64,000 nucleotides of DNA from a virus: positions 33,369 through 97,368 of the IMG/VR virus record IMGVR_UViG_3300025276_000026; one strand, 5' to 3'. The notes below the pieces were generated by a model. The model ran no database searches. It was not told the origin of the DNA and worked only from the letters and a program-made list of their open reading frames with translations. Both the position numbers and the translations under genes were made by a program. Positions 33,302-61,143 of the stretch are shown one piece after another. Every line of letters starts with the position of its first letter. The stretch's first letter is position 1.

Positions 33302-33395
33302 TTGGCATAATCCCCAAAATTGAGATGATAAAGATTAGGCAGAGACATAAAGTCTCTACCGTATCTCGTAAAACATTTAGTTTATTTCTTATCAT
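33294..33395 (-). CDS. 33-aa single-TM micro-protein
   Basis: MIRNKLNVLRDTVETLCLCLIFIISILGIMPSV; TAATG coupling. Confidence 0.5.
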   Translation of the reverse strand: MIRNKLNVLRDTVETLCLCLIFIISILGIMPSV

Positions 33396-52643: not shown

Positions 52644-53517
52644 ATAATTCCAATTGTACTTCTTCTTTCTGTTCTAAGTCGGGGTTATGCATAGGACATT
52701 CGGGTGGTGGATTGTCTTCTTTAAACATCTTACCCTTCTCATTCCAATACTTAATCCTTCTGTATGCACCTGCCATACCTTCGATATGTCTCTTCTCTTC
52801 TCTGAGTTCGGGTGACCTATTCCACTCATCCATGGTCTTAAGTTTACTACCGTCTTCACCTTCTCTATGAGTGGTTCGAACGGAACGATTCTCTTGCCAT
52901 GATTTATTGTCGTATGTTATGTATGATGCTGTCCAATCTTCTCTTCTGTAAGGTATTATTTGAACTAAGGGTGTGCCTGCTTTGATTGTGAAATCTTTGT
53001 CTGTTCTAGGATAGAAAATAATCTGAGAGTTATCCATGTTAACATTGAATGCATCTGTATCAATCATACCTTGCCATGTTGCAAAATACTTATTCTGAAA
53101 TAGGAATGGGTCTAGATATAGACAAGAATAGCCAGGCGGTGTGATAATGTTCCAAGGTGCTTTCATCTTGAATGCATCCCTTGTTGGTGCATCATCCTCG
53201 TGTAAGTATGTAAAGTGATGACCTGCTTGAGCAGCTGGATGTGTTGGGGATGATAATGAATCTCCCTTATCGGTATTTGCAGCTGAGGAGTTTGGACTTA
53301 CTTTAACTTCCATATCTCTCTTTGCACATATTAACCAACCAGTTTTTAACCAGTCATCCATAGCAGGACATGACCTTAGAGTCTGTGCCTTTTGTCCACG
53401 AATATTCTGTTGCACCTTCATGGTCTTCCACCAATCGGGTTGAATGGATTTTGCAAGAACTGGTCTCCAGTTCTCTACCGTTTCCTTATCGTATGTGGTG
53501 AATTCTATCGTAGGCAT
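52621..53517 (-). CDS. hypothetical protein, possible dUTPase-like beta fold (DUF6065-like)
   Basis: CPAMDD...GW, PWNIITPPGYSCL, KAGTPLVQIIPYRRE. Confidence 0.55.
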   Translation of the reverse strand: MPTIEFTTYDKETVENWRPVLAKSIQPDWWKTMKVQQNIRGQKAQTLRSCPAMDDWLKTGWLICAKRDMEVKVSPNSSAANTDKGDSLSSPTHPAAQAGHHFTYLHEDDAPTRDAFKMKAPWNIITPPGYSCLYLDPFLFQNKYFATWQGMIDTDAFNVNMDNSQIIFYPRTDKDFTIKAGTPLVQIIPYRREDWTASYITYDNKSWQENRSVRTTHREGEDGSKLKTMDEWNRSPELREEKRHIEGMAGAYRRIKYWNEKGKMFKEDNPPPECPMHNPDLEQKEEVQLELFGDQDVS

Positions 53518-54208
53518 CTTCCCCCCAGTTTACTTTGAGACTAATTTCGTCTCCTCTTATTACTAAAGAACGTCTATCCATGTATCGTGCTTTAGGTGAA
53601 GGTGCATCAGCACCATGTGGTATTCTTCCATCAAATATTAACAGTCTATTTGGTTTAAAATAAACCTCTTGTGTTTGATGATTCTTAATGTGGTCTGCTC
53701 TTCCATGTATTCCTTGTTGCATTTCATCATACAATCTTAAAGAACCACCCCATGAGTCATTCCAAAATCTATTAGGATAGTATAGGAATGAAAGATTCCA
53801 ATCATCTTGCATATCACAATCTGCATGTGTAGTTCCTTCAAGTCCTTGAGTCTGAGAATTCAAACCAAAGTATTGAAACCTCTCCCACATAAATCCAAAG
53901 TCTGTTTGGAGTTTTCTATTTAACCAAGCCATTAGATATGTGTCTCTAGGTTCCATACCATCTTCTATTTTTTGGTCATGACCTCTGAAGAAACCTGCTC
54001 CCCAAAAACTATGATGAGGTAATCCTGTAGGACTATCTCCTCTAACTTGATTAGTTTTTGCCCAGTAACTTTTCTGTGTGATGGATTCGTCAATTCTATG
54101 ATGCATAGTTTGACCTAGATAATCATCTAGGACATATACCTTTTGTAAAGGCATATCTTTAATATGAAAGGGTTCGTTGATGAACTCTAACTCAACATCA
54201 TCATACAT
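53486..54208 (-). CDS. 2OG-Fe(II) oxygenase (prolyl-hydroxylase-like)
   Basis: THAD, LYYPN...WGG, PNRLLIFDGRIPHG, RRS. Confidence 0.85.
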   Translation of the reverse strand: MYDDVELEFINEPFHIKDMPLQKVYVLDDYLGQTMHHRIDESITQKSYWAKTNQVRGDSPTGLPHHSFWGAGFFRGHDQKIEDGMEPRDTYLMAWLNRKLQTDFGFMWERFQYFGLNSQTQGLEGTTHADCDMQDDWNLSFLYYPNRFWNDSWGGSLRLYDEMQQGIHGRADHIKNHQTQEVYFKPNRLLIFDGRIPHGADAPSPKARYMDRRSLVIRGDEISLKVNWGEDAYDRIHHIR

Positions 54209-54211
54209 TGA

Positions 54212-54772
54212 CTAAACTCTTCTAGTATCTTCGGGTGCGTAAGGTGAAGGTATTTCACTCACATAAGAATCAAAGTCTTTCAAGAAATCTTCTCTTGTAG
54301 ATTGTATCTCATTTGCAAGTTGGTCTAGAACACAATTGGCTGCATCTGCATATTCCATTACTCTTCTAGCGTTGTTTCTATGAGGATGGTTAGACCCTTC
54401 TCTTCCAGCATACATTGTTTCTGCAAGAGTATCAAAGTTATACTGTAAACATTCCTGTTCAACGTATTGTTTAGTTTGTCTGAAAAGAGATTCAACATAT
54501 TGTTGATTGAGACTATGACCCATAGGTGGTTCACTGTTCTCAATATACTGTTCAATCATTTCACACTCTTCTTTCGAAAGTGCTACTTTTGTTTGTTGGT
54601 CAAATGATAGACCGTCTTCGTAATTGACTATCTTAACTTCGATATCGTCATAGACGATAACATCGAAATCAAAGTCAAAGGCTGGTTTGTCGACATTCTG
54701 ATAGTCGTATTCTAGTCCGTTTGGTTTACGGATGAATAACGTTCCGTCACTGTCGTATATAAATGCATTCAT
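54212..54772 (-). CDS. hypothetical protein
   Basis: 186 aa; GAGG RBS; within the enzyme cluster. Confidence 0.65.
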   Translation of the reverse strand: MNAFIYDSDGTLFIRKPNGLEYDYQNVDKPAFDFDFDVIVYDDIEVKIVNYEDGLSFDQQTKVALSKEECEMIEQYIENSEPPMGHSLNQQYVESLFRQTKQYVEQECLQYNFDTLAETMYAGREGSNHPHRNNARRVMEYADAANCVLDQLANEIQSTREDFLKDFDSYVSEIPSPYAPEDTRRV

Positions 54773-54804
54773 AATTTAGTTCCTCTCAATATTATTGTAT
54801 CACA

Positions 54805-56379
54805 TTAGTCGCCAATTGGCAACTTTCTTTTCCATTTTAAAAAGTCTTCAAGATTATTTATGGTGCTATAATCCATCCCTTTTACCCAAGGGCCACCACG
54901 TGTGTAGTGAATCCCGCTGTAGTTATATTTCTCTTCGTGATTATCGTATCCTTCTACGAAGATATAGTGTTCGGGTATCTTGGATATCTTCTCCGTCCAC
55001 TCAAATTGGTGTAACTGTTTTCCTGTCCATGTATTAACTACTTCGGGTGTTAACTTCTTACAGTCTTCATGACCATTGTTGAACACCATCATACTAGACC
55101 AAAGTTTCCTAGGGTAATCTATGTTAACCTCACCATCAAACTTTGTCTCATCATGTTTGTATTGTGGATACTGAATACATGCAACAGCATCATTAGGGTT
55201 TAAGTAGTAGAACATTGGTAGTATACTCTTCTTAAAGATGAAATCATCATCAATAAAGATACTAAATCCTTCATAGTTCTCTAAGTAAGGTATTAAGAAT
55301 CTACTGTATGTAAACTCAGTACTTTGATTTGCATACTCTCTAGTATACTCTTCAATCTCTGCAATGTCAAGTATTTTAACTTCGGGTGCCCAATGACATT
55401 GGTCATGCATCCATCCTTTACCAAAGCCTTGTTGAATACTTTCTAAGATTGCATACTTAGATACTTTTGATAAGTCTCCATGTCTACTGTCATGACCGAT
55501 ATAGATTGTAAGTGGTTTACCTTTTGCAAGGTCAAACATCTGTTTGTTGAATTCATGTACTTCATCTCTGAAATCTAAATCCATCAATGCAGTATTGTAT
55601 TCGATACACCCATCCACGTATGTACATGAGATATGATATGGTTTATTTAATCTTTCACACTTATTATACCACATCTGTAATACGCTGTCAAGGCTTGATG
55701 GTTCTACTTTGACCACATCATAACTATCTAAGACCATGATTTCCATATCATTATCTTGCAACTCTTCAAAGACACCCGAACGAATAGAGCCTGGATGTAT
55801 TCTAAAGGTATAAGTAGGTTCAGTATTCAAACCAGTAATACCATTCTCAATTACGTAACCTTGAATAGGAGCTCTAAGACCTTCTTCTTGAATACTCTGA
55901 ATTAACCAATGTGCTTTTGCACCATGATAATACATTGATAGTAATGAACCTTCTGACTGTTCATTTCTGTCTACACCTTCCCAATCGATTAATGTGTCTA
56001 AATTAACATACCCATCTGCATCTTTCATGTCCATTCCAGCATGGCCTGGAATTGGTGTCCTAGGTTTCTCTGCATATCCTACTGGTAAAAACTTGTTATA
56101 TATTACGGATTCATTTCTAAGACCATTGAACCCACCAAATCTATTGTCCTTTCTTAGATACTCAAAGTCTTTCCACTTTGCAACTTTTACTGGGGGTAGA
56201 ATTTCATCGAACAACCATTCTAATATCTTGTATGATTCTTTGGTTTTATCTATGCTATCGAGATTAAAAGCACCTAGATGATAGGGCCCAAGGGATTGTC
56301 TGTCTTGTGACGTAAGATTTTTCCAATCTTGTTTTGAGATAAGTTCTTTCGCTTGTTCTAAGGTCTCAATTTTCTGCAT
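54805..56379 (-). CDS. two-domain protein with C-terminal GT-A glycosyltransferase
   Basis: IYIGHDSR, STEFTYSRFLIPYL, DDD (DxD-like), YPRKLWSS, HYTRGGPW; N-terminal about 280 aa unassigned. Confidence 0.8.
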   Translation of the reverse strand: MQKIETLEQAKELISKQDWKNLTSQDRQSLGPYHLGAFNLDSIDKTKESYKILEWLFDEILPPVKVAKWKDFEYLRKDNRFGGFNGLRNESVIYNKFLPVGYAEKPRTPIPGHAGMDMKDADGYVNLDTLIDWEGVDRNEQSEGSLLSMYYHGAKAHWLIQSIQEEGLRAPIQGYVIENGITGLNTEPTYTFRIHPGSIRSGVFEELQDNDMEIMVLDSYDVVKVEPSSLDSVLQMWYNKCERLNKPYHISCTYVDGCIEYNTALMDLDFRDEVHEFNKQMFDLAKGKPLTIYIGHDSRHGDLSKVSKYAILESIQQGFGKGWMHDQCHWAPEVKILDIAEIEEYTREYANQSTEFTYSRFLIPYLENYEGFSIFIDDDFIFKKSILPMFYYLNPNDAVACIQYPQYKHDETKFDGEVNIDYPRKLWSSMMVFNNGHEDCKKLTPEVVNTWTGKQLHQFEWTEKISKIPEHYIFVEGYDNHEEKYNYSGIHYTRGGPWVKGMDYSTINNLEDFLKWKRKLPIGD

Positions 56380-56416: not shown

Positions 56417-56445
56417 AAAAAAAACCCCTCTTTCGAGGGGTCTTT
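56417..56445 (-). terminator. rho-independent terminator after the repeat-protein pair
   Basis: GACCCCTC-GAAA-GAGGGGTT then T-run; a late TAAATA follows at 56404-56409. Confidence 0.85.
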
Positions 56446-56469: not shown

Positions 56470-57588
56470 CTATGCTGAAATTGGTGTTGCAGGCCACTGT
56501 TGTGAACCAACTCCATCCCATCTTGCTTCGGGGGTTTGACCCTGTCTTGCATATGTGAACGGACTTCTATGTTGGTACGTAAACGGTGTCTGACCAGTTC
56601 TATTGTAAGTAAACGGACTTCTATGTTGATATGTGAAAGGTGTTTGACCTTGTCTAGCATATGTACTAGGAGACCTGTGACTGTACGTAAACGGTGTCTG
56701 TCCAGTTCTTTGATACGTAAACGGTGTTTGTGCATTTCTTATATTAGGTTCTTGACCTGTTGCGATATAAGGGAAGTTAACCGCTGCATTTCTTATGTTA
56801 GGTTCTTGTGCATTTACAGGGTTTCTATAAGTGAACGGTGACCTATGTTGATAAGTAGCAGGTTGTCTAGCATTAGAAGGGTTCTGATAAGTGAACGGAC
56901 TTCTATGGTTATACGTAAACGGTGACTGACTGTTTCTAATATTAGGTTCCTGTGAAGAACGGATATTAGGTTCTTGGTTGTTTCTAATATTAGGCTCTTG
57001 TGCAGATACAGGGTTTCTGTAAGTGAACGGTGACCTATGGTTGTACGTAAATGGTGCTTGGTTATTCCTAATGTTAGGTTCTTGTATAGACCTAATGTTC
57101 GGTTCTTGAATACTTCTAATGTTAGGCTCTTGTGCAGATACAGGACTTCTGTAAGTGAACGGTGACCTGTAGTTGTACGTATATGGTGACCTATGGTTGT
57201 AAGTACTAGGTTGTCTTGCATTATTAGGCTGTCTTGCATTTGCAATATACGGTTGTCTATATGTAAACGGTTGCCTTGCACTGTTAGGTTGTCTTGCATT
57301 TGCAATATACGGTTGTCTATATGTAAACGGTTGTCTTGCATTATTAGGCTGTCTTGCACTTACTGGATGTCTGTATGTAAACGGATTCTGAAACGTAAAT
57401 GGATTCTGTCCATTTGCTGGATATCTTGCGTTATATGTAAATGGTGCTTGGAATGTAAATGGTTGTTGAGCATTCGCAGGGTATCTTGCACTATATGTAA
57501 ACGGTTGCTGTGATATCGAAGGCGACCTTACGTTCACACTCGACTGAGCATTACGGATATTCGGTTGTTGTCTGTACCCTATTGGCAT
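56470..57588 (-). CDS. Pro/Gln/Arg/Tyr-rich modular repeat protein B (putative fibre strand)
   Basis: 47 modules of 6/8/10 aa, mostly [R/Q]xP...; AGGA RBS. Confidence 0.85.
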   Translation of the reverse strand: MPIGYRQQPNIRNAQSSVNVRSPSISQQPFTYSARYPANAQQPFTFQAPFTYNARYPANGQNPFTFQNPFTYRHPVSARQPNNARQPFTYRQPYIANARQPNSARQPFTYRQPYIANARQPNNARQPSTYNHRSPYTYNYRSPFTYRSPVSAQEPNIRSIQEPNIRSIQEPNIRNNQAPFTYNHRSPFTYRNPVSAQEPNIRNNQEPNIRSSQEPNIRNSQSPFTYNHRSPFTYQNPSNARQPATYQHRSPFTYRNPVNAQEPNIRNAAVNFPYIATGQEPNIRNAQTPFTYQRTGQTPFTYSHRSPSTYARQGQTPFTYQHRSPFTYNRTGQTPFTYQHRSPFTYARQGQTPEARWDGVGSQQWPATPISA

Positions 57589-58740
57589 CTTAATAGTCCT
57601 GTTAAATTATTTGTCATTGTCATATGTCTCATCAGCTTACGGCTCATAATAGTTAGGACTTCCGCCACCATAGGCAAAGTAGTATGTAAATGGTGACCTA
57701 TGTTGATATGAACTAGGTGATTGTGCAATACTTGGAGTCTGAACATTCACCGACGAACGAGCATTGGCAATGTAAGGGACTCTATATGTAAACGGATTCC
57801 TTGCACTATTAGGTTGCCTTGCGTTAGCAATGTATGGTTGTCTATAAGTAAACGGTTGTCTTGCACTATTCGGTTGTCTCGCATTACTTGGTTGTTGATA
57901 AGTAAACGGTGCTTGGAATGTGAAAGGACTCTGTCCATTTGCTGGATACCTACTGTTGTAAGTAAACGGTGCTTGGAATGTAAACGGTGACTGACCATTT
58001 GCTGGATACCTACTGTTGTAAGTAAACGGGGCTTGGAATGTAAACGGTGACTGACTGTTTCTAATATTAGGTTCTTGAATACTTCTAATGTTAGGTTGCT
58101 GAGCACTCACTGGGTTTCTATATGTAAATGGAGACCTATGGTTGTACGTAAACGGTGACCTATGGTTGTATGTGTAAGGAGACCTGTGATTGTATGTACT
58201 AGGTTGTCTTGCGTCTCTTATGTTAGGTTGCTGTGCATTTACAGGGTTTCTATAAGTGAACGGTGACCTGTGGTTATACGTTGATGGTGACCTATGGTTA
58301 TAAGTAAACGGACTTCTGTGTTGATACGAAGCAGGTTGTCTTGCTTGACGTATGTTAGGTTCTTGTCCATTCACTGGGTTTCTGTAAGTGAAAGGAGTCT
58401 GACTATTACGTATGTTAGGTTCTTGTCCGTTTACTGGGTTTCTATATGTAAATGGAGACCTATATTGATAAGTAACAGGTTGTTGACCTACATTATTGTA
58501 AGTAAATGGAGACCTATGTTGATACGTACTAGGTTGTCTTGCATTAGCAATGTAAGGATACGGTTGTTGTGCAGACCTAATGTTAGGTTCTTGGTTGTTA
58601 GCAATGTACGGATACGGTTGCTGTGCATCTCTTATGTTTGGTTCTTGTCCAGTTGCAATATAAGGATACGGTTGTTGTGCATCTCTTATGTTTGGTTGCT
58701 GACCAGCTGCAATGTATGGATATGGAATTTGCGTTGCAGT
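56470..58740. repeat. mosaic of 18/24/30-nt coding tandem repeats
   Basis: Recurrent units such as taagtgaacggtgacctatggtt and atgttaggttcttg; all in frame. Confidence 0.9.
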
Positions 58741-58887
58741 TTGCCCTGACGCATTATTCCATCCAGTAGGAGTCTTAACATAAATTTGGTCGACGGCCTT
58801 CCATGTAGTAGAACCTGTCTTTACCCATGCACCTTGAGTTGAATTCCAACCCGACGGTGTTTTGACCTTTTGTGAACCTGTTGCCAT
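57637..58887 (-). CDS. Pro/Gln/Arg/Tyr-rich modular repeat protein A with Trp-rich N-terminal docking-like domain (putative fibre strand)
   Basis: VKTPSGW/WVKTGSTTWK/YVKTPTGW N-terminus, then 47 modules; late TAAATA at 58912-58917. Confidence 0.85.
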   Translation of the reverse strand: MATGSQKVKTPSGWNSTQGAWVKTGSTTWKAVDQIYVKTPTGWNNASGQTATQIPYPYIAAGQQPNIRDAQQPYPYIATGQEPNIRDAQQPYPYIANNQEPNIRSAQQPYPYIANARQPSTYQHRSPFTYNNVGQQPVTYQYRSPFTYRNPVNGQEPNIRNSQTPFTYRNPVNGQEPNIRQARQPASYQHRSPFTYNHRSPSTYNHRSPFTYRNPVNAQQPNIRDARQPSTYNHRSPYTYNHRSPFTYNHRSPFTYRNPVSAQQPNIRSIQEPNIRNSQSPFTFQAPFTYNSRYPANGQSPFTFQAPFTYNSRYPANGQSPFTFQAPFTYQQPSNARQPNSARQPFTYRQPYIANARQPNSARNPFTYRVPYIANARSSVNVQTPSIAQSPSSYQHRSPFTYYFAYGGGSPNYYEP

Positions 58888-58938: not shown

Positions 58939-61143
58939 TTAGGAGTATAGAACCCACATGTCACCAACCGCTCCATCACCACTTGTAGGTGCTGAAGTTG
59001 ACTGGTACATATTTCTTGCAGTTCCACCACTATTAGATGCATTTGTTATTGACAATGCTCCTGTAGATACTGCCGAAGGGGTTACTGATATCGCTCCAGT
59101 TGAAGCACCAGTTGCAGAAGTTGTACCGAATACAAATCCTGTTGCACTGTCGTCCCACCCCATAAATACGTTACTCTCACTTCCTCTCTCAATCACTATA
59201 CCTGCGTCGTTTGAAGGACTGCCTGTAGTTCCGTTTCCTAACTCAATCAATGAGTCTGTCATTGTTGTGTTAGTAGAACTTACTGTAGAAGTAGTTCCGT
59301 TAACTGTTAAGTTTCCACTTAGTACCATGTCTGCAAACGTTACGTTACTTGAAGTAGCAACTGCCTGTCCGATGGATATTGCACCACCACTAAATCCGAC
59401 ACCAGTACCAGCACTTAGTTGAGCTCTTACATCTGAAGCAGTAGGGCCGTCATAAGTATATGCACCTGTTGAAGCGTTGTATGCAAGTCCACCAATTCCG
59501 TTTGAAACTGCTGAATGTAATGCTCTGATTTCTCCATCTGTACTACCAGTAATGGTAAGTGTTCCAGCTGCGTCATTGTAAGTTTTTGTGATGTTAGTGC
59601 CTGCAGTAATAACTGCATTCATTCTGTCATCTACTTGTTCTTGGTCTAAAGCATCTGTTGCAATAGTAAGTGTTCCAGCACTGTCATCATATGTTGATGT
59701 GATGTTTGCACCGTCTGTGATTAAAGTATTAACTCTATCGTCAACTCTCTCATCTGTGTAGTATAAGTTTCCACTCTCACCAACGTGAGATGTGTTTAAA
59801 GTGACCGCTGCTCCTAGAGCAACTGCTTGTGAGTTAATTGTAACTGAAGAGTTGGAAAGTTTTGCGTTTGCAATTGAACCTGCTAACATGGCATTAGTAA
59901 TACCAGTTGCTTTTACTCTTAGTGTATCTGAATTTGTTTCGATTGAACTGTCATCTACTGTTACGGATAGAACACCACTTGAGTGTCCAAGACCGTCACC
60001 TGCTACTGAAGCATCTAGGTTTAGGGTTGCATCTCCCGAAGTAGCACCACCTGTTAGACCGTCACCTGCGATAACACCTGTGATGTCCGCTGCGTTTCCG
60101 TCAATAGTAAGTGTTCCAGCTGCATCATTATATGTTGCAGTGATGTTTGTACCACCAACAACTAATGCACCGACTCTGTCGTCGACTCTTTCGTTTGTGT
60201 AGTAAAGGTTACCACTCTCTGTGATTCCACCAGTATTTAATGTGATGTTTGCTGTACCGTCGAATCCAACACCCGAGATAGTTCTTGAACTTGCAAGTGC
60301 TGTAGCAGTTCCTGCTAGGCCTGTTGTATCTTGGTTAAGTGTTGCAACTGTAAAGTCTAATGTGTTGTCTGCATCTTGATAAGCTACTGTAATACCACTT
60401 TCAGCATTACTTGTTACCATTGCTCCGACTGTATCTGCGATAAATTCTGCGTCTACTGCAAGGTCTATTGTTCCGTCTGCATCGTCATATGTTACTGCAA
60501 TACCTGTTTCAGTATTTGAACTGAACATTGCACCAGCAATATCTTGAACTCTTTCTGAAGTATGATAAAGGTTAGTTGAACCTTCTGTTAAACTGTCTGT
60601 GTTTGATGAACTTTCATCTACTAATTTTCTCCATGAACCAGCATGAGCAAAGTACCCTTTTCCTGTTCCATGAACATGAGCAAACATACCATGGTATGTA
60701 CTTGCACTAGGTAAGTCACCTTCTGCACTATACATGTTAGCAAACAATACTTTGTTACCACCCATGTCGAGGTCTGAACCATCGATACTTGCTCTAATAG
60801 CAGTCATGTCAGCTTCAATAGTATCTGCATTAACTGTGATACCTGTTCCAGCACCAATGTTTAATGTAGCATCTCCACTAGATGCAGTACCAGTTAAACC
60901 AGCTCCTGCGTTAACTCCAGTGATATCACCTTGTTGTCCATTCAGTGTAAGTGTTCCTGCTGAATCGTCGTAAGTTGCAGTAATTCCTGTTCCACCAACG
61001 ATTAATGCATTGACTCTATCGTCAATTGCTTCGTTTGCAGCGGTACCAAAAGCAGCTGCTACTAGGTCACCCGAACTGTCTAATACATCGTTCGTTCCTA
61101 CTGATAAACCATTCTTAAGTATAAAATTCTTTTCGCCTGCCAT
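58939..61143 (-). CDS. tail fibre-like virion protein
   Basis: G/A/T/S-rich; repeated NLYxTxERVxD and TYDDxAGTLT; C-terminal SAPTSGDGAVGDMW. Confidence 0.8.
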   Translation of the reverse strand: MAGEKNFILKNGLSVGTNDVLDSSGDLVAAAFGTAANEAIDDRVNALIVGGTGITATYDDSAGTLTLNGQQGDITGVNAGAGLTGTASSGDATLNIGAGTGITVNADTIEADMTAIRASIDGSDLDMGGNKVLFANMYSAEGDLPSASTYHGMFAHVHGTGKGYFAHAGSWRKLVDESSSNTDSLTEGSTNLYHTSERVQDIAGAMFSSNTETGIAVTYDDADGTIDLAVDAEFIADTVGAMVTSNAESGITVAYQDADNTLDFTVATLNQDTTGLAGTATALASSRTISGVGFDGTANITLNTGGITESGNLYYTNERVDDRVGALVVGGTNITATYNDAAGTLTIDGNAADITGVIAGDGLTGGATSGDATLNLDASVAGDGLGHSSGVLSVTVDDSSIETNSDTLRVKATGITNAMLAGSIANAKLSNSSVTINSQAVALGAAVTLNTSHVGESGNLYYTDERVDDRVNTLITDGANITSTYDDSAGTLTIATDALDQEQVDDRMNAVITAGTNITKTYNDAAGTLTITGSTDGEIRALHSAVSNGIGGLAYNASTGAYTYDGPTASDVRAQLSAGTGVGFSGGAISIGQAVATSSNVTFADMVLSGNLTVNGTTSTVSSTNTTMTDSLIELGNGTTGSPSNDAGIVIERGSESNVFMGWDDSATGFVFGTTSATGASTGAISVTPSAVSTGALSITNASNSGGTARNMYQSTSAPTSGDGAVGDMWVLYS

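Follow-up and report, generated by a model that had tools for sequence, protein, structure and literature searches.

Two adjacent genes, here called A and B, lie on the minus strand of a 64,000-nucleotide stretch of the virus record IMGVR_UViG_3300025276_000026 (record positions 33,369 to 97,368), which we refer to as the window. Both genes encode long arrays of short modules, and the array in B is the module-by-module mirror complement of the array in A. This arrangement suggests that the two products probably pair along their length as the shaft of a phage fibre. The genes and their parts are as follows.

57637..58887, minus strand: gene A, 416 residues, consisting of a Trp-rich N-terminal domain, a 47-module core and a short Gly/aromatic tail (from the list of open reading frames (ORFs), the module parse and at least 448 homologs)
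58732..58887, minus strand: A residues 1-52, the conserved N-terminal domain and putative virion-proximal anchor (alignment of 43 sequences)
57700..58731, minus strand: A core, residues 53-396, 47 modules of 6, 8 or 10 residues with [R/Q]xP at each start
57640..57699, minus strand: A residues 397-416, a Gly/aromatic C-terminal tail, the hypervariable end of the family and putative distal tip (comparison with relatives)
57589..57636, minus strand: 48-nucleotide A-B spacer with a second in-frame TAA, AGGA 9 nucleotides before the B ATG, and no terminator
56470..57588, minus strand: gene B, 372 residues, consisting of a 6-residue head, a 47-module core and a conserved Trp-containing C-terminus
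56539..57570, minus strand: B core, residues 7-350, with 47 modules that mirror and complement those of the A core one by one
56473..56538, minus strand: B residues 351-372, a conserved C-terminal segment that would lie beside the A N-terminal domain (alignment of 42 sequences)
56420..56445, minus strand: terminator-like hairpin with a T-run, of the intrinsic type, directly after B and closing the A-B unit

These boundaries divide A into 52+344+20 residues and B into 6+344+22 residues, in agreement with an earlier note made from the letters of the window, and the 48-nucleotide gap with its second in-frame TAA is likewise as described there. A and B look like one bicistronic unit because no terminator separates them and B is followed by a strong hairpin and T-run that resemble a terminator. 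For comparison, A has at least 448 database homologs, and a scan of IMG/VR yielded 79 loci (viral contigs) that carry the gene pair, 77 of them not cut by a contig end, which together represent 55 distinct A-B pairs. The earlier statement that A and B share a reading frame is true of the window but incidental, as 54 distinct pairs fall into classes of 16/18/20 by gap length modulo 3. Fusion of A and B by readthrough or frameshifting is ruled out, since the frame of the gap varies among relatives. The window also contains 10 copies of the T4 late-promoter-like octamer TATAAATA, against 4.5 expected, all on the minus strand; no copy stands directly before A, where there is only a AATAAATA-like box at ~58910.

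We scripted the module parse by cutting each protein at every [R/Q]xP and at the three degenerate starts named in the earlier note, and obtained 47 modules and 344 residues for both cores. The reversed string of A module lengths equals the B string at 47/47 positions, and all 47 opposed pairs are complementary in type, as had been claimed, although the SVNV/PSI "code pair" rests on one occurrence. In a permutation test of 120,000 shuffles in all, the maximum was 35 compared with the observed 47/47: simple shuffles of the modules matched in length at 19.3 of the 47 positions on average and at 34 at most (100,000 trials), and shuffles that preserve neighbours gave a mean of 21.8 and a maximum of 35 (20,000 trials). 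Read in the forward (parallel) direction, A and B have equal lengths at 17 of 47 positions. Could the mirror be an artefact of a permissive parse of low-complexity sequence? The three degenerate module starts and the singly occurring SVNV/PSI pair invite this suspicion, but it is refuted, and we give it almost no credence, because a parse-free test gives the same answer. When only the Pro positions of [RQ]xP are compared over antiparallel offsets, 45/47 coincide at one offset in the window (shuffled module order: mean 17, maximum 24), about 50 other pairs behave alike, and the length shuffles never exceeded 35/47.

The relatives show that the mirror is maintained while the arrays change. In all 77 uncut loci, an A-like ORF is followed directly by a B-like ORF, and the two have near-equal [RQ]xP counts, from 25/25 to 74/71. 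The mirror coincidence of the anchor prolines is 0.9-1.0 in ~50/55 distinct pairs, compared with ~0.35-0.4 when module order is shuffled, and the forward match is far lower. These pairs comprise 45 distinct length architectures of 25-74 modules, and the lengths of the A and B cores are correlated at r=0.987 across 196-544 residues. Each A is matched to its own B: the median mirror match is 0.95 for cognate and 0.38 for non-cognate A-B pairs, and for 52/55 A proteins no partner scores better than the cognate B. The 43 well-mirrored pairs contain 34 different architectures of A and 29 of B, and a given A architecture never occurs with two B partners. Antiparallel A-A, antiparallel B-B and parallel A-B comparisons each reach a mirror score of only ~0.55, and on these scores we reject self-pairing and parallel pairing. 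The module orders of A and B do not vary independently in the homologs, and each of the controls, whether shuffled, non-cognate, A-A, B-B or parallel, falls far below the cognate antiparallel arrangement.

The earlier note had proposed looking among homologs for insertions and deletions that are mirrored in the two genes, and such cases exist. Relative to the window, locus L001 has an extra 44-residue super-unit in A and a complementary 44-residue unit in B, and it also lacks one facing 8-residue pair, in both genes. In L018, the central part of A has a long 10/8 module run, and B carries the complementary run opposite it. Moreover, L072, L047 and L033 use other module vocabularies and still keep the mirror.

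At what residue register would the two chains face each other? We slid the antiparallel register from -8 to +8 residues over the family pairs, and one register was uniquely best, with a mutual information of 1.65 bits compared with at most 1.37 elsewhere. At this register, Pro of A faces the Arg/Gln of the B RxP, so that RxP lies opposite PxR and body opposite body; in the window, A residue i is predicted to face B residue 404-i (0-based numbering). It is the only even shift free of aromatic-aromatic contacts, of which there is 1 compared with 683 expected, whereas aromatic-small contacts number 3161 compared with 1524 expected. The enriched pairs are Pro-Arg/Gln, Asn-Thr, Ala-Phe, Ala-Tyr, Val-Tyr, Gly-Tyr, Arg-Tyr, His-Asn, Glu-Ser and Ile-Gln, and identical residues are opposed at just 1.6% of positions, family-wide. 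The code is reciprocal, as the A-to-B and B-to-A tables correlate at r=0.94. The register of the earlier note, in which module lies on module, scores lower, and the best register lies 3 residues away. The antiparallel, in-register pairing that the note put forward is strongly supported by homolog covariation, in its pairing, its facing of large with small residues and its beta parity, but its residue register was off by 3.

The same pairs reveal a strict alternation. Module lengths across the family are 6 (1569 modules), 8 (2144) and 10 (723), intermixed, and all regular lengths are even. In 110 proteins, even-numbered core positions hold 99.7% of Phe/Tyr, and odd-numbered ones 99.2% of Pro. 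Such an unbroken two-residue alternation over hundreds of residues is the signature expected of continuous beta-strand geometry. In a two-stranded antiparallel ribbon, one parity class fixes both the face on which a side chain lies and whether the backbone NH points to the partner strand. Because Pro is confined to one parity class, standard sheet geometry implies that all Pro could occupy sites without a hydrogen bond to the partner, where they could block edge-to-edge aggregation.

Does the complementarity reside in the DNA or in the proteins? The earlier statement that the DNA is not an inverted repeat was borne out, as no inverted repeat longer than 18 nucleotides links the two genes. When the A core is compared with the reverse complement of the B core, identity peaks at 37% at an in-frame offset of +9 nucleotides over a background near 25%, and most of this excess is Arg AGR opposite Pro CCN. 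The remaining codons, outside the Arg/Pro frame, are 33.9% antisense-identical compared with 28.0% for shuffled pairings (z=3.9), a small excess explained by a few code pairs, Tyr/Val and Asn/Ile, whose codons are antisense to each other. The codons of the dominant pairs, Ala-Phe, Ala-Tyr, Asn-Thr, Pro-Gln, His-Asn and Glu-Ser, are not. Therefore, the complementarity lies at the protein level, as the note had said, and we reject a DNA inverted repeat or antisense origin as a sufficient cause.

Part of the mirror in the window has a simpler history. A stretch of 14 modules stands in the same forward order in the C-terminal part of A and the N-terminal part of B, with 64% DNA identity. The order of modules in this shared stretch is palindromic, so that one duplicated self-complementary segment accounts for part of the mirror in the window, a caveat absent from the earlier note. 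The shared segment does not explain the remaining mirror, in which, for example, (3,1) and (3,2) runs of aromatic and PNIR modules in A have (2,3) and (1,3) runs opposite them in B. It does show recombination or duplication between the genes and so lends something to the idea that A and B make no contact, and that the mirror records how the DNA arose, by an old inverted duplication with both strands read, or reflects continuing repeat dynamics at the DNA level between the adjacent genes. The in-frame antisense peak, the excess in the other codons and the antisense relation of Arg AGR/Pro CCN, Tyr/Val and Asn/Ile point the same way. However, both genes are on the same strand with no inverted repeat long enough to pair, and no DNA mechanism would know the amino-acid complement of the dominant, non-antisense code pairs. 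Moreover, about 30 or more matched architectures and a near-absolute ban on aromatic-aromatic contacts need selection on the proteins. We therefore consider an origin without contact very unlikely.

Open frames are also present on the plus strand opposite both repeat genes, at 56536-56841, 57193-57513, 57721-57990 and 58294-58749. They encode 89-151 residues, are rich in Cys, Arg, Leu and Ile and are codon-aligned with the genes that they oppose. Most likely they are a by-product of repeat codon usage, in which Arg-x-Pro becomes Arg-x-Ser/Pro on the other strand.

We consider it probable that A and B form a heteromeric fibre shaft, in which the two cores run as an antiparallel, in-register beta duplex. 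A and B would be made from one late bicistronic message, and the 344-residue cores would be paired over their full length, antiparallel and in register. Opposite every [R/Q]xP of A would stand a PxR/Q of B, and opposite every module body one of the same length. On one face, the duplex would carry Pro, Arg/Gln, Thr, Asn and Ile; on the other, Phe/Tyr opposite Ala/Gly/Val, or Tyr opposite Arg. The aromatic face would probably need to be buried by bundling, possibly of several duplexes, for example three as in a six-stranded needle. Register would be set by module length and by the rule that large faces small. Repeat slippage would alter each gene separately and selection would keep only pairs with matching arrays, so that the length would be tunable. 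As a two-stranded ribbon, the geometry proposed in the earlier note, the fibre would be 110-120 nm long.

Several points weigh against this proposal. L013 and L003 (L010-like genomes) lack 44 or 88 residues in one gene only, and L026 and L036 are likewise uncompensated; in these exceptions one gene is shorter or longer by whole units of 44 or ~18-20 residues. These variants are either repeats collapsed in short-read assemblies, or real uncompensated intermediates or tolerated mismatches. Many loci are closely related, and the 55 pairs are not 55 independent events. A and B match no family of known structure. A single 110-nm ribbon of two strands would be unusually thin, and higher-order bundling must be assumed. 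Finally, what the sequences show is the mirror, the pairing code, the parity, the covariation of the arrays and the pattern of conservation, from which physical binding, presence in the virion, beta geometry, stoichiometry and a fibre role are inferred.

An alternative keeps the antiparallel A-B relation but folds each chain as a beta meander, with modules as strands and turns at RxP. The sheets would pack face to face like a steric zipper, A module k on B module 48-k, and the fibre would be ~20-25 nm long rather than ~110 nm. Such packing would also need equal facing lengths and large-small complementarity, and it would dispense with the thin 110-nm ribbon of two strands, which is hard to picture as stable. 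However, the aromatic/Pro parity is unbroken across every module boundary, which is expected of a continuous strand and not required by a meander. Six-residue modules would leave strands of only ~3 residues, and neighbouring modules differ in length within one chain (10, 8, 10, 8), which would make the sheets ragged. We regard this folding as unlikely.

The ends of the two proteins suggest a polarity for the extended duplex. In A residues 1-52, W14, W21, W29 and W43 are invariant, as are R-W-D and W-P in the last ~20 residues of B. The mirror places the conserved A N-terminus and B C-terminus at the same end and puts the variable A C-terminus beside the short B N-terminus. A conserved attachment end and a variable tip are the usual layout of phage fibres, and the polarity proposed earlier, with the A N-terminus and B C-terminus as the base and the A C-terminus as the tip, fits this pattern. 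The A N-terminal domain and the B C-terminus would thus lie together at the virion-proximal end, and the variable A C-terminus and the B N-terminus at the distal, host-facing end.

The A C-terminus takes three forms in the family: a short Gly/aromatic tail as in the window, a Hint-type domain, or a domain of 140-170 residues. The Hint/intein-like form occurs at L021:7411-7959, L028:7009-7614, L064:6883-7410 and L075:6973-7509, and also in P0001, P0014 and P0037; it is absent from A of the window. Its Cys follows directly on a poly-Gly run, and it ends in His-Asn followed by a few residues without a +1 nucleophile. This suggests that A proteins with a Hint domain may undergo autocleavage between Gly and Cys, or ligation via a thioester, at the distal end of the fibre. 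In a second group of relatives, the 140-170-residue domain is accompanied by an acidic ORF of 86-100 residues between A and B (L047:6687-7166 with L047:7185-7487; L033:6275-6703 with L033:6718-6978; similar in L038-L044, L054, L059, L069 and L079). Neither has a Pfam match, and the pair could be a receptor-binding tip with its own chaperone.

This second group bears on whether B belongs to the mature fibre at all. B might be a dedicated assembly template or chaperone that zips transiently onto A, covers its aggregation-prone aromatic face, holds the array in register and leaves before the fibre matures or while it does so. Phage fibres commonly need chaperones encoded next to them, such as T4 gp38 and gp57A (PMC3004832), and covariation demands contact between A and B, not co-residence in the virion. 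However, a stoichiometric full-length partner of equal size with its own conserved terminal segment would be a costly chaperone, and where A has a C-terminal tip domain the small acidic ORF between A and B looks more like one. We think a purely transient role for B quite unlikely.

Searches for known families returned little. No PDB chain matched A at E<=1 by phmmer, PHROGs gave no match to either protein, neither A nor B carries a Pfam or PHROG fibre family, and no ESM Atlas look-alike of B reached 0.9. AlphaFold2 (AF2) gave B alone a mean predicted local distance difference test score (pLDDT) of 34.8 with no secondary structure, and gave A 1-156 a mean of 40.7 with weak strands only at residues 21-45; for the A N-terminal domain it gave weak beta strands only (pLDDT 52-66). 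A complex prediction of A 1-156 with B 250-372, from alignments of ~42 rows each, produced no model (score 0.00) and is evidence neither way. A collagen-like phage fibre is rejected, as neither core has a run of three or more G-x-y triplets. The earlier suggestion of a split ancestral hairpin protein is without support: a fused single-ORF form occurs in 0/79 loci, and a weak search among longer proteins found no fused single-chain hairpin. No homolog was found in 50,697 GenBank phage records by DNA, full-length A or the A N-terminal domain.

The one Pfam match to A is PF10511 Cementoin (43.2 bits, cut-off 27), which covers residues 151-177 only; B falls below the cut-off. Cementoin describes trappin transglutaminase-substrate repeats, hexapeptides that bear Gln and Lys. 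Because the A and B cores contain no Lys, we judge the match to be compositional (Q-x-P-V-x-G) and reject it. Automatic annotation could spread this false assignment.

How do A and B compare with known systems? The nearest analogue is the needle of gp37 at the distal, host-facing end of the T4-type fibre. The needle at the tip of the T4 long tail fibre (structure of Bartual et al. 2010) is a six-stranded antiparallel beta structure of three chains (PMC9659904), ~15 nm long, with the outgoing and returning strands in one chain and His-x-His iron sites along its length (PMC6957217). In contrast, A and B are two separate gene products with arrays of 196-544 residues and a register set by module length and a large/small code. 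We found 0 HxH in the 344-residue cores of A and B, and with two ORFs and no sequence similarity to solved chains, they lack what defines a gp37-type needle. The C-terminal triple beta-helix of T4 gp5 consists of octapeptide repeats with a fixed period in a parallel homotrimer (PMC3004832). It resembles A and B in its short beta repeats (8 residues in gp5) with inward/outward alternation, but in A and B modules of 6, 8 and 10 residues are mixed and their order is mirrored between two proteins. Membership of the gp5C type is rejected because the fixed octapeptide period is lacking.

Two further comparisons come from general knowledge. In the stalk of streptococcal antigen I/II (SpaP/SspB), two repeat arrays with matched repeat numbers run antiparallel side by side in a long, thin structure. 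Antigen I/II is a bacterial adhesin of a single chain, in which an alpha helix packs with a polyproline-II helix and the repeats are few and long, whereas A and B would pair beta with beta, as two chains, under a digital code that runs module by module. Spectrin alpha/beta and Alacoil coiled coils bring two tandem-repeat chains together antiparallel with large residues required to face small ones, but they are alpha-helical and built of 106-residue or heptad units. We know of no report for these systems of natural module-order covariation between two genes on this scale.

We found no description of such proteins in literature searches for the motifs, for heteromeric phage fibres of antiparallel build or for the fibre clusters of pelagimyophages. 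A survey of pelagimyophages describes a hypervariable host-recognition cluster with fibres and glycosyltransferases and does not describe A/B-type proteins (PMC7029224). As far as we have found, the A/B design is undescribed in the published literature.

What would such a pair mean? We lean, if only slightly, towards reading the arrangement as a digital protein pairing code, a beta duplex hundreds of residues long that follows a reverse-complement rule as a nucleic-acid duplex does. The code would consist of module length and of large facing small, with Pro facing Arg/Gln as punctuation, and compensated insertions and deletions in the two genes would change the length of the duplex. If the chains do zip, they would be, to our knowledge, the first natural pair of proteins in which one can be read from the other, for hundreds of residues, by a reverse-complement rule. 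They would constitute a new class of heteromeric fibre and a natural alphabet for addressable beta-sheet assemblies. The ~45 architectures and at least 448 homologs in ocean metagenomes act like a mutational scan of the pairing rules. The system bears on how very long, thin beta fibres keep register and avoid aggregation, and on how two genes co-evolve through compensated gains and losses of repeats. It also bears on tunable-length host-recognition fibres (cores of 196-544 residues) of abundant uncultured marine T4-like phages, and on the design of hetero-specific beta-sheet pairs.

The genes that flank A and B are these.

58939..61143, minus strand: fibre-like protein of 734 residues, upstream of A, with PHROG tail fibre / structural protein matches; present upstream in 78/79 loci
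54805-56379, minus strand: GT8-like glycosyltransferase, downstream of B (Pfam)
54212-54772, minus strand: 186-residue protein, in the downstream cassette after B
53486-54208, minus strand: 2-oxoglutarate-Fe(II) (2OG-Fe(II)) oxygenase of the PF13640 type (Pfam), in the downstream cassette 53486..56379

The order of fibre gene, A, B, glycosyltransferase, 186-residue protein and oxygenase is kept in 76-78 of 79 loci, with the downstream cassette in 76-77/79, and this synteny holds even at ~42-50% identity. The fibre-like gene upstream, the conserved synteny, the conserved A N-terminus and the hypervariable A C-terminus would suit a tail-fibre role for A and B. The glycosyltransferase and the oxygenase have no PDB sequence matches. 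Their constancy as neighbours raises the possibility that the periodic Pro of A and B is modified, and the downstream enzymes may hydroxylate or glycosylate it.

The genome is that of an uncultured marine T4-like myophage, as the gp44 clamp loader encoded in the window shares ~60% identity with its counterparts in cyanomyophages and in Pelagibacter phage Mosig. With an estimated completeness of 54%, the 97-kb record is a fragment, and it carries one A-B pair only.

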